Positions 5,768-45,297 of a stretch of 64,000 bases of DNA are shown here, piece after piece. Origin of the DNA: Octopus vulgaris. Taxonomy: Eukaryota. Positions within the stretch are counted from its first letter, which is position 1. Each line of letters opens with the position of its first letter. A program made the translations under genes and the position numbers. The notes below the pieces were generated by a model. It was not told where the DNA came from, did no database searches, and saw only the letters and a list, made by a program, of their open reading frames with translations. Where the stretch lies: NCBI GenBank assembly GCA_951406725.2, contig OX597821.1:38130001-38194000 (forward strand), read 5' to 3'.

Positions 5768-5865
5768 GTCCTAACCGATCGACGTTAAATGACATTTGGC
5801 GAATGGTTTGGCAAGAAAATTCGAAAACAATTATTATGTTGACAAATCCTACAGAAACTGGAAAG
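5768..5865 (+). CDS. Receptor-type protein tyrosine phosphatase, catalytic-domain exon A (gene begins upstream of this exon)
   Basis: Acceptor ttttcag, donor gtattt, 98 bp. Translates (G)PNRSTLNDIWRMVWQENSKTIIMLTNPTETGK, matching the PTP motifs QGP / DFWxMVW / IVMLT. Confidence 0.95.
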
Positions 5866-13519: not shown

Positions 13520-14222
13520 TGTATGTATATATATATCTCAGCAAACTCATTCTCCATTCATATTTTCCGCTATTCACCCCCACCAACATATATATATGCA
13601 CGCACACACATACGCACGCAAATATATGCATATTCGGCTATATAAGATTTATAAAGTATCCAGGCATATCACCTTAGACAGAAACACGCACAGAAACACG
13701 TTAAGTAATCCATTACAGTTTTGAATCAACGATGAAGGCTCGACACTTTCGTTGTGTAATGCACAATTTCATTTGTTTATCAGTAATTGGATAGATACTA
13801 GAATCCTTGGTGTGGCGTGAACTTACACACGTCTATATTGAAAATGCCGGATGAGCCTCAAAATTACTTAATGTATGACGCAATCCCTACTCTGTTAAGC
13901 TTACATTAAATAAGGAGATTCTCAGCAAAGCAATTGCCAGAAAATTTAAAACCCGTCCGTTTGTTTCCTCCTACTGCATACACATATTATATATATGTAT
14001 ATATATATATATAAATATATATATAAATATATATATATATATGTATATATATATAACGTGTCGTATTTTTGCCATTTCAATATGGCTAACCCCAAAGGGT
14101 GGATGCTACTGTAGTTTTTAGCCCCAGGAGGACACACTCCTCCAGCTGACCATAGACACACTTTCTGTGTCCTGTCAGTATTTGCAAAGGGAAGTCATCC
14201 TTCCCGTCTTCAACTTATGATA

Positions 14223-14267
14223 CACACGGACTCGAGTTTCGAGGTATTGACCTCTCGTCAGCGTGTG
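14223..14267 (-). ncRNA. Type I hammerhead ribozyme, unit 1 (intact)
   Basis: Minus strand reads CACACG CUGACGA GAGGU caau ACCUC GAAA CUCGAG UC CGUGUG: full core, 6-bp stem I, 5-bp stem II, palindromic stem III ACUCGAGU, GUC cleavage triplet. Confidence 0.93.
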
Positions 14268-14575
14268 ACAATCATAGTTGTCGCCGAGAATTAGATTTCC
14301 TTCACAAATACTTATACTTTTTCCAGCGTCCACTGTCGCTGATAATGAAAAAGTGAAATGAAACAATGATAAATATCAATGTGAGTTATATACAGTAGCG
14401 GTAACACAACGTGTCGTATTTTTGCCATTTCAATATGGCTAACCCCTAAGGGTGGATGCTACTGTAGTTTTTAGCCCCAGGAGGACACACTCCTCCAGCT
14501 GGCCATAGACACACTTTCTGTGTCCTGTCAGTATTTGCAAAGGGAAGTCATCCTTCCCGTCTTCAACTTATGATA

Positions 14576-14620
14576 CACACGGACTCGAGTTTCGAGGTAT
14601 TGACCTCTTGTCAGCGTGTG
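14576..14620 (-). ncRNA. Type I hammerhead ribozyme, unit 2 (G8>A, probably inactive)
   Basis: Same as unit 1 except the core reads CUGACAA (plus strand cctcttgtcag). Confidence 0.85.
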
Positions 14621-14927
14621 ACAATCATAGTTGTCGCCGAGAATTAGATTTCCTTCACAAATACTTATACTTTTCCAGCGTCCACTGTCGCTGATAATGA
14701 AAAAGTGAAATGAAACAATGATAAATATCAATGTGAGTTATATACAGTAGCGGTAACACAACGTGTCGTATTTTTGCCATTTCAATATGGCTAACCCCTA
14801 AGGGTGGATGCTACTGTAGTTTTTAGCCCCAGGAGGACACACTCCTCCAGCTGGCCATAGACACACTTTCTGTGTCCTGTCAGTATTTGCAAAGGGAAGT
14901 CATCCTTCCCGTCTTCAACTTATGATA

Positions 14928-14972
14928 CACACGGACTCGAGTTTCGAGGTATTGACCTCTCGTCAGCGTGTG
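14928..14972 (-). ncRNA. Type I hammerhead ribozyme, unit 3 (intact)
   Basis: Identical motif to unit 1. Confidence 0.93.
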
Positions 14973-15280
14973 ACAATCATAGTTGTCGCCGAGAATTAGA
15001 TTTCCTTCACAAATACTTATACTTTTTCCAGCGTCCACTGTCGCTGATATTGAAAAAGTGAAATCAAACAATGATAAATATCAATGTGAGTTATATACAG
15101 TAGCGTTAACACAACGTGTCGTATTTTTGCCATTTCAATATGGCTAATCCCTAAGGGTGGATGCTACTGTAGTTTTTAGCCCCAGGAGGACACACTCCTC
15201 CAGCTGGCCATAGACACACTTTCTGTGTCCTGTCAGTATTTGCAAAGGGAAGTCATCCTTCCCGTCTTCAACTTATGATA

Positions 15281-15325
15281 CACACGGACTCGAGTTTCGA
15301 GGTATTGACCTCTCGTCAGCGTGTG
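15281..15325 (-). ncRNA. Type I hammerhead ribozyme, unit 4 (intact)
   Basis: Identical motif to unit 1. Confidence 0.93.
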
Positions 15326-15541
15326 ACAATCATAGTTGTCGCCGAGAATTAGATTTCCTTCACAAATACTTATACTTTTTCCAGCGTCCACTGTCGCTGA
15401 TATTGAAAAAGTGAAATCAAACAATGATAAATATCAATGTGAGTTATATACAGTAGCGGTAACACATCAGCGACAGTGGACGCTGGAAAAAGTATAAGTA
15501 TTTGTGAAGGAAATCTAATTCTCGGCGACAACTATGATTGT

Positions 15542-15586
15542 CACACGCTGACGAGAGGTCAATACCTCGAAACTCGAGTCCGTGTG
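15542..15586 (+). ncRNA. Type I hammerhead ribozyme in the inverted unit (intact, sense to the PTP pre-mRNA)
   Basis: cacacg ctgacga gaggt caat acctc gaaa ctcgag tc cgtgtg read directly on the plus strand. Confidence 0.93.
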
Positions 15587-15770
15587 TATCATAAGTTGAA
15601 GACGGGAAGGATGACTTCCCTTTGCAAATACTGACAGGACACAGAAAGTGTGTCCTCATGGGGCTAAAAACTACAGTAGCATCCACCCTTAGGGGTTAGC
15701 CATATTGAAATGGCAAAAATACGACACGTTGTGTTACCGCTACTGTATATAACTCACATTGATATTTATC

Positions 15771-15820
<50 letters not shown>

Positions 15821-15877
15821 CATATATGTATATATATATATACATATATATATATATAGAAGGAGCTTAGACTAGTA

Positions 15878-15910
<33 letters not shown>

Positions 15911-16634
15911 TTATATATATATTTATATATATATATATATACATATATATAATATGTGTATGCAATAGGAGGAAACAAACGGACGGGTTTAAAATTTTCT
16001 GGCAATTGCTTTGCTGAGAATCTCCTTATTTAATGTAAGCTTAACAGAGTAGGGATTGCGTCATACATTAAGTAATTTTGAGGCTCATCCGGCATTTTCA
16101 ATATAGACGTGTGTAAGTTCACGCCACACCAAGGATTCTAGTATTTATCTAATTACTGATAAACAAATGAAATTGTGCATTACACAACAAAAGTGTCGAG
16201 CCTTCATCGTTGATTCAAAACTGTAATGGATTACTTAACGTGTTTCTGTCTAAGGTGATATGCCTGGATACTTTATAAATCTTATATAGCCGAATATGCA
16301 TATATTTGCGTGCGTATGTGTGTGCGTGCATATATATATGTTGGTGGGGGTGAATAGCGGAAAATATGAATGGAGAATGAGTTTGCTGAGATCATGCAAT
16401 TTATTGAATGACCTTGCCATCACTTGGAGTATTTGCCTCTAAATCCAACGCCGAGCATAACGTCATTATCGTTAACATCATAACTGTTTTGTTAGTCTTG
16501 GCACTGATGCTATTTTCCCTCTATTGTAATTATGTCTTCTAATTTATTATTATTATTATTGCTGTTTTTTATTATTACATTAGTTTTCTAATAATAATAA
16601 TAATAATAATAATAATGATAATAATAATAATAAT

Positions 16635-44537: not shown

Positions 44538-45295
44538 AGAATCGTTAGTGCGCCCGGCGAAATGCTTAGCGGTATTTCGTCTGCGTTACGTTGTGTTCAA
44601 TTCCGCCGAGGTCGACTTTGCCTTTCATCCTTTCGGGGTCGATAAATTAAGTACCAGTTACGAACTGGGGTCGATGTAATCGACTTAATACCTATGTCTG
44701 TCCTTGTTTGTTCCCTCTGTGTTTAGCCCCTTGTTGGTGATAAAGAAATAGGTATTTCGTCTGCTGTTACGTTCTGAGTTCAAATTCCGCCGAGGTCGAC
44801 TTTGCCTTTCATCCTTTCGGGGTCGATTAAATAAGTATCAGCTACGCACTGGAGCCGATATAATCTACTTAATCCGTCTGTCTGTCCTTGTTTGTCTCCT
44901 CTGTGTTTATCCCCTTGTGTGTAGTAAAGAAATAGGTATTTCGTCTGCCACTACGTTCTCAGTTAAATTTCCGCAGAGGTCGACTTTGTCTTTCATCCTT
45001 TCGGAGTCGATAAATTAAGTACTAGTTACGCACTGGGGGTCGATATAATCGACTTAATCCGTCTGTCTGTCCTTATTTGTCTCCTCTGTGTTTAGCCCCT
45101 TGTGGGTAGTAAAGAAATGGGTATTTCGTCTGCCACTACGTTCTGAGTTCAAATTCCGTCGAGGTCGACTTTGCCTTTCATTCTTTCTGGGTCGATAAAT
45201 TAAGTACCAGTTACGCACTGGTGTCGATGTAATCGACTTAACCATTTGTCTGCCTTTGTCCCCTCTATGTTTAACCTATTGTGGGCAATAAAGAA

Positions 45296-45297
<2 letters not shown>
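44538..45297 (+). mobile_element. Tandem array of four family A SINE bodies (~180-185 bp units)
   Basis: Units gtatttcgtctg...aagaaat begin at ~44572, 44752, 44936 and 45121; only the first has part of the 5' head. Confidence 0.92.

Follow-up and report, generated by a model that had tools for sequence, protein, structure and literature searches.

A dispersed 353-bp hammerhead retrozyme family of Octopus vulgaris with a candidate Penelope-like, two-site insertion footprint

Judged by its sequence, a dispersed 353-bp repeat of Octopus vulgaris belongs to the non-LTR retrozymes. Elements of this kind are known; the family appears to be new. Its insertions end in a two-site, one-site-per-arm footprint that we read as the Penelope 'tail' signature, which would be new for a retrozyme. 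We observed a hammerhead motif, a family of copies, covariation among them, two fixed ends of which each arm uses one, insertion at TA repeats, and copies that run through the cleavage site. We consider it probable that the element is a self-cleaving retrozyme whose RNA would form circles, to be copied into (TA)n from two fixed sites by an RT-endonuclease similar to the one in Penelope-like elements (PLEs).

The window, that is, the whole 64,000-nucleotide stretch of DNA analysed, carries the insertion at 14055-15773. The first-pass annotation had taken 15466-15773 (+) for the repeat unit. This interval is instead one arm, the short inverted one, of an insertion that has two; it is 308 nt long, 5'-truncated and with a 24-nt deletion near 15655, as against a full unit of 353 bp. 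Both arms face outward into (TA)n. With unit positions numbered from the predicted cleavage site, the insertion and its flanks are laid out as follows.

13535..14054, no strand: left flank with the (TA)n target at 13984-14054; matches the right flank as an inverted duplicate (96% identity)
14055..15466, minus strand: long arm, made up of 353-bp retrozyme units in tandem (4.0 copies); ends 3' at site a (unit position 174), adjoining (TA)n
14223..14267, minus strand: hammerhead copy with canonical core; Rfam match
14576..14620, minus strand: hammerhead copy with G8 changed to A and the C3-G8 pair broken; read directly, absent from the Rfam matches
14928..14972, minus strand: hammerhead copy with canonical core; Rfam match
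15281..15325, minus strand: hammerhead copy with canonical core; Rfam match
15466..15773, plus strand: short inverted arm, running through unit positions 239-353 and on through 1-217; ends 3' at site b, adjoining (TA)n
15774..16392, no strand: right flank with the (TA)n target at 15774-15955 and the inverted duplicate (15882-16392) of the left flank

The flanks themselves (13535-14055 and 15882-16392) form a 520-bp inverted duplicate (96%) that has no other match in the genome at that identity. Inverted flank duplicates were seen at 6/59 retrozyme loci (4 of them at least 94% identical), compared with 1/100 control TA runs, and they possibly arose by snap-back synthesis at the cut (TA)n. The 18-bp spacer between two TA runs at 15859-15876 looks like the end of an element, palindromic, ~95 bp long and flanked by TA, that was seen complete at L032:2395-2495. 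Elsewhere in the window, positions 44571-45297 carry a tandem repeat of 184 bp with no relation to the retrozyme (4 copies, 86% matches), which we take to resemble a common SINE-type repeat.

The ribozyme and its surrounding fold lie within the short arm, all on the plus strand.

15468..15485: CAGCG/CGCUG hairpin
15498..15547: rod 5' strand; includes stem I (15542-15547) and, at 15539-15541, the UGU side of the internal loop
15498-15510/15619-15631: rod helix GUAUUUGUGAAGG/CCUUUGCAAAUAC
15519-15524/15603-15608: rod helix UUCUCG/CGGGAA
15529-15538/15588-15598: rod helix CAACUAUGAU/AUCAUaAGUUG
15548..15580: type I hammerhead core, with CUGACGA, stem II GAGG/CCUC, hexaloop 15559-15564, GAAA, palindromic stem III and GUC
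between 15580 and 15581: predicted cut of the hammerhead core
15581..15631: rod 3' strand, including the unpaired U1.7 (15587)
15638..15654: GACACA/UGUGUC hairpin; relatives carry compensatory changes
15673..15746: multibranch domain with ACAGUAGC/GCUACUGU as its closing helix; site a (15727-15730) and the hairpins ACCC and GCCAU lie inside it
15731..15773: 'tail' of 43 nt bounded by the fixed ends a and b, which only one arm has

The hammerhead was matched over its full length by the Rfam model RF00163 (Hammerhead_1) at 15542-15586 (+), with 32.2 bits against a cut-off of 34 and an E-value of 1.4e-5. Three of the four long-arm units also matched Hammerhead_1, each with 32.2 bits against the same cut-off of 34, and at the gathering cut-off Rfam returned no match anywhere in the window. 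The conserved core and three stems with an open stem I are present, and the score falls short of the gathering cut-off. The motif was found by Rfam on one polarity of the unit only. Matches to microRNA families at the E-value level came from the inverted arms and TA runs and were discarded. As read from the letters, the anatomy matches that of the canonical metazoan type I hammerhead, with a 6-bp stem I, a 4-bp stem II and a short palindromic stem III (PMC4209133), and the G8-to-A copy of the long arm is likely to be inactive.

The genome (2.8 Gb, 227 contigs) was searched with the interval 15466-15773, which gave 1983 candidates, 40 of which were scored. The exact hammerhead pattern was found 904 times genome-wide and 0 times in the reversed control, and a 22-mer spanning the cleavage junction matched 1003 times. 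The retrozyme family is dispersed and multi-copy. Loci of subfamily A, to which the window's copy belongs, lie ~2.6% apart; the subfamily is young, which leaves little covariation within it. Representatives of older subfamilies are 60-72% identical to A, and one more distant relative was found besides. The covariation alignment consisted of 19 hand-picked natural copies (2 from A, 17 others) that were aligned by sequence only, with the pairs defined from A.

In this alignment 86% of the cells pair and 23/76 pairs have changed on both sides, against 6-9 pairs when the partners were slid by 1-3 columns, so that the covariation expected by the first-pass annotation among genomic copies is present across subfamilies. 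None of 500 shuffles reached the observed values (0/500), a result that is not a probability, as the rows are related and cells overcount events. The rod and stem I account for 16/23 covarying pairs. Two helices are weakly held, partly through gaps, in the sequence-only alignment (UUCUCG/CGGGAA 58% paired, ACCC/GGGU 53-72%), and RNAalifold recovered the rod only in part because the middle of the alignment is out of register. When folded singly, each of the five subfamily representatives formed the rod. In the distant relative, a rod of different sequence lies beneath the hammerhead (z -8.4 vs -6.5). The subfamily covariation, together with this rod of different sequence, supports selection on the fold.

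Several features of the ribozyme itself vary in a constrained manner. Core positions 3 and 8 are U-A in 9 rows, U-G in 6 and C-G in 4, and never C-A; U3-A8 is a known active covariation (PMC3088659; PMC4209133). The stem III hexamer takes five forms in the 19 rows, all of them self-complementary, one via G-U pairs, and it is self-complementary in the distant relative too; decayed single copies with non-palindromic hexamers also exist. Loop II, previously read as CAAU, is better read as the hexaloop UCAAUA, since its first base is C in 17/19 rows opposite an invariant A. The UGU/U internal loop 6 bp from the core is there in the sequence as had been described, and four bases do not vary in 19/19 rows: U1.7, the first U of this internal loop, C17 and the final A of loop II. 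Given that U1.7 and this final A are described as forming a U-A Hoogsteen contact in natural hammerheads (PMC11875169), the docking of the two loops that had been suggested is likely, now by way of these invariant contact nucleotides and with the loop reading corrected. Subfamily B1 is an exception: 23/155 motif matches carry a CCGAAGA core together with the common B hexamer, and in 32/155 the base of stem II is mismatched as C-A. Loci of B1 (L080, L087 and others) are widely spread with this changed core and mismatch.

The extension of stem I through internal loops was borne out, all three rod helices being present in the sequence and in the predicted ensemble. The description of the unit as base-paired almost throughout did not hold, as 63.5% is paired compared with 60.5 +/- 2.9% in 100 shuffles. 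Rod and ribozyme (15498-15631) take up 134 of 353 nt (38% of the unit), and the remainder consists of hairpins and multiloops. Four of the five hairpins proposed at first pass were retained, CAGCG/CGCUG, GACACA/UGUGUC and GCCAU/AUGGC with pair probabilities of 0.92-1.0 and ACCC/GGGU with 0.72-0.84. The fifth, GCUA/UAGC, was dropped (pair probability 0, with one pair broken in 17/18 distinct rows), and its segment instead pairs as ACAGUAGC/GCUACUGU, which is 98% paired with one compensatory change. Two further hairpins of the window's family, AAUACGA/UUGUGUU and GAUA/UAUC, are not conserved (52% and 78% paired). Folding was better than in dinucleotide shuffles on both strands, as had been anticipated, with z of -5.8 (+) and -4.2 (-) for the interval 15466-15773 and, in circular mode, of -6.6 (ribozyme strand) and -4.9 (other strand) for the full 353-nt unit.

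In the circular monomer fold, the probability of stem III was 0 and that of stem II 0.3. The notion that the monomer is a fast natural hammerhead is therefore doubtful on these models. For a natural tandem dimer taken from the window, the MFE was a double hammerhead with both stem IIs formed (one core being the G8A copy); the inter-unit palindrome paired with probabilities of 0.43-0.58 and intra-unit stem III with 0. Cleavage probably needs a dimer, according to the predicted folds.

We examined the insertion footprint in 59 subfamily-A loci, 39 chosen by search score (one duplicate dropped) and 20 by position. The 3' ends fall at unit positions 171-174 (site a) or 216-221 (site b), ~45 nt apart, and 86/91 of them adjoin (TA)n. 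Among the two-armed loci (n=32), 29 were a+b, 3 had one atypical end and 0 were a+a or b+b, while the one-armed loci (n=27) ended at a (21), at b (4) or elsewhere (2). Either arm can be the longer one. At a given locus the two arms agree in lineage and in their private variants, which suggests that they derive from one source. In subfamily B, 13/19 two-armed loci were a+b in a count by eye; the unit positions are shared with A and the letters differ. Many subfamily B insertions (L075-L100) lie in AT-rich, non-microsatellite targets with direct duplications of 5-11 bp, unlike the (TA)n bias of A. With regard to arm length, the long arm at 14055-15466 is exactly 4.0 units and terminates at its own start site; among the 20 main arms picked by position, about 6 break off at unit positions 130-180, where about 3 would be expected, which hints weakly that copying stalls after whole rounds.

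This pattern has a close counterpart. With a purified PLE protein, RT begins at two internal positions that delimit the tail, and both strands of AT-rich DNA are nicked (PMC11167929); inverted 5'-truncated arms, a one-sided tail and a (TA)n bias are PLE features (PMC8557442). The one-ended tail, the inverted 5'-truncated arm and the AT-rich target were all found here. The mechanism that we favour combines these elements. Tandem transcripts would self-cleave as double hammerheads into monomers, the folding being predicted and the cleavage proposed from related systems; the rod, in the predicted fold, would pair both ends of the cut monomer and hold them together for ligation; a host ligase, as in related systems, would close monomers into circles; and a PLE-like RT-endonuclease would copy the circular template into (TA)n from two internal start points, the two arms being primed from the two target ends, one site each.

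The identity of the template is where this mechanism meets its best competitor. Copies starting at the cleavage site were not in excess among the loci (2 vs 6 at a control position), so that a cleaved linear monomer was rejected as the main template, leaving a circle or a multimer that has not been cut. Nearly all copies read through the cleavage site, which fits uncleaved multimers equally well and, with the Rfam score below cut-off, counts against the favoured mechanism. The element could then be a non-autonomous Penelope-type element copied from uncleaved linear multimers, with rod and branched domain acting as an RT-binding scaffold and cleavage and circles being incidental. In line with this, PLE insertion in vitro is unaffected in hammerhead mutants and proceeds without hammerhead cleavage (PMC11167929), B1 has been amplified with a variant core, and 1/9 Xenopus retrozyme dimers was cleaved in vitro (10.64898/2026.07.22.740005). 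Against it, subfamilies only 60-72% identical have kept U1.7, the final A of loop II, the 3-8 pair and a palindromic stem III, which implies selection on catalysis. We hold copying from linear multimers to be unlikely.

A further proposal, which we put forward tentatively and with less than even confidence, is that the conserved fold acts as a ruler for the Penelope RT. A single protein dimer would prime the two target ends, each arm from its own structure-defined site, with 45 nt between the sites; thousands of natural twin-priming products made on a retrozyme circle would then be present in the genome, and subfamilies would tune or drop catalysis (U3-A8, U3-G8, CCGAAGA).

Whether the fold acts as RNA or as DNA bears on a second rival, in which it would work at the DNA level in a single-stranded cDNA or fold-back intermediate, the inverted arm being made by fold-back copying and not by a second RNA priming. 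The first-pass annotation had taken mismatches that resolve as G-U on one strand as a sign of selection on RNA over DNA. This argument failed, given that DNA energies produce a similar strand preference: the rod region gave z of -5.3 vs -3.0 with DNA energy parameters and of -5.4 vs -4.6 with RNA energies. The ribozyme strand does fold better, with a lower z in 5/5 subfamily representatives (margins 0.1 to 3.6), and the asymmetry is no proof of RNA. No excess of G-U over A-C was found in relatives (78 vs 89 cells; 29 vs 25 distinct states), the count covering columns that are Watson-Crick in the window's family and including many A-C states at helix ends and in poorly aligned columns. It is the hammerhead core, and not the G-U pairs, that speaks for RNA. 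Besides the asymmetry with DNA energies, a DNA-level fold would accommodate the inverted flank duplications (6/59 loci) and the locus-specific variants common to both arms. It offers no rationale for covariation in the hammerhead core; moreover, the second arm ends at a fixed site, which is a known RT start site in PLEs, and the longer arm can be either one. We regard this explanation as very improbable. Least probable of all are endogenised copies of a viroid-like circular RNA replicating RNA-to-RNA, for the size and rod are viroid-like and several haplotypes and subfamilies co-exist, but the ribozyme motif is on one polarity only, the fold is branched and not a full rod, and the insertion signature is that of a retrotransposon.

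The outcome of a search for an autonomous partner element also counts against the favoured mechanism. The 353-bp unit is non-coding and has no ORF with RT and GIY-YIG; PLE ORFs lie elsewhere and have unrelated termini. The genome carries PLEs with intact 781-aa RT/GIY-YIG ORFs, sited in (TA)n. In 50 stretches around GIY-YIG matches (150 of 6136 candidates were scored), no autonomous PLE with a pLTR matching the retrozyme was found; three retrozyme matches in these stretches are separate insertions, and no PLE ORF was continuous with a retrozyme unit among the matches inspected. The 59 loci contained no LTR-like structure, and no long ORF lies between two HHR copies 3 kb apart at L138.

Other observations were made along the way. 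A young PLE family in L188-L194 (e.g. L192:3126-5468) encodes GIY-YIG at the C-terminus with a CxxxxCxxC motif before it; many of its 781-aa ORFs are intact, and a second long ORF lies ahead of the 781-aa ORF; we take the CxxxxCxxC before GIY-YIG to be Neptune-like. A PLE terminus in L195 (~5800-5845), read by eye, bears a minimal-hammerhead-like motif with the core CCGAAGA. Near one retrozyme copy, L141:65-1243 (-) is a single-exon galactosyltransferase ORF (PF01762).

Among known systems, the closest in anatomy are the animal non-LTR retrozymes (Cervera and de la Pena 2020, PMC7229834), which measure 350-390 bp in mussel and 331/353 bp in axolotl. The octopus family shares with them tandem units of 150-450 bp, a canonical type I hammerhead, a GC content <50%, no ORF, a self-paired predicted circle, a short palindromic stem III that points to dimer-type cleavage, and PLEs in the genome (PMC7229834). 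The window holds 4 x 353 bp with three canonical cores and one G8A, and the predicted circular fold is stable and self-paired (z -6.6, with covariation). The two fixed 3' ends, inverted arms, (TA)n targets and multi-subfamily covariation set it apart from animal retrozymes as these are described in the available portion of PMC7229834. A literature search, largely without subscription papers, returned no description of this family or of a retrozyme tail; the supplement of PMC7229834, outside this comparison, may list the family or host, and a squid genome paper mentions Hammerhead-1 matches in passing (PMC6962438).

The viroids and HDV-like rod-shaped circles are similar in size, hammerhead and long imperfect helix. 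They differ in that here the rod is 38% of the unit, the core is not blocked by complementarity, the ribozyme is on one strand and genomic insertions exist; with 63.5% paired, a branched fold and one polarity, the whole-length rod and ribozymes on both polarities are missing.

In footprint, the nearest relatives are endonuclease-bearing PLEs (Craig 2021, PMC8557442; Frangieh 2024, PMC11167929). Partial tandems, a 5'-truncated copy that sits inverted at the 5' end, a one-ended tail, two internal start sites downstream of the hammerhead, and AT-rich or (TA)n targets are common to both. The tail is ~43-49 nt in the retrozyme and 30-40 in the PLEs of these sources. Unlike PLEs, the retrozyme has no ORF and has a canonical, not minimal, hammerhead with loop-loop contact nucleotides, and a matching autonomous element was not found in the searches above. 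Xenopus retrozymes have been proposed as non-autonomous PLE derivatives on the basis of co-occurrence and pLTR homology (Li 2026 preprint, 10.64898/2026.07.22.740005); the word 'tail' has 0 occurrences in that text, and the link here is the insertion footprint. Earlier arguments on the machinery that moves animal retrozymes drew on co-occurrence and on homology to pLTRs; the present family bears the Penelope footprint itself. As a 353-nt minimal template, it offers a testbed for how the PLE RT chooses two start sites and makes inverted arms, and its subfamily series provides natural covariation for the whole RNA and an assayable panel of core variants. The rod-plus-hammerhead anatomy is by itself ordinary among retrozymes, and the strict two-site footprint is what this family adds.
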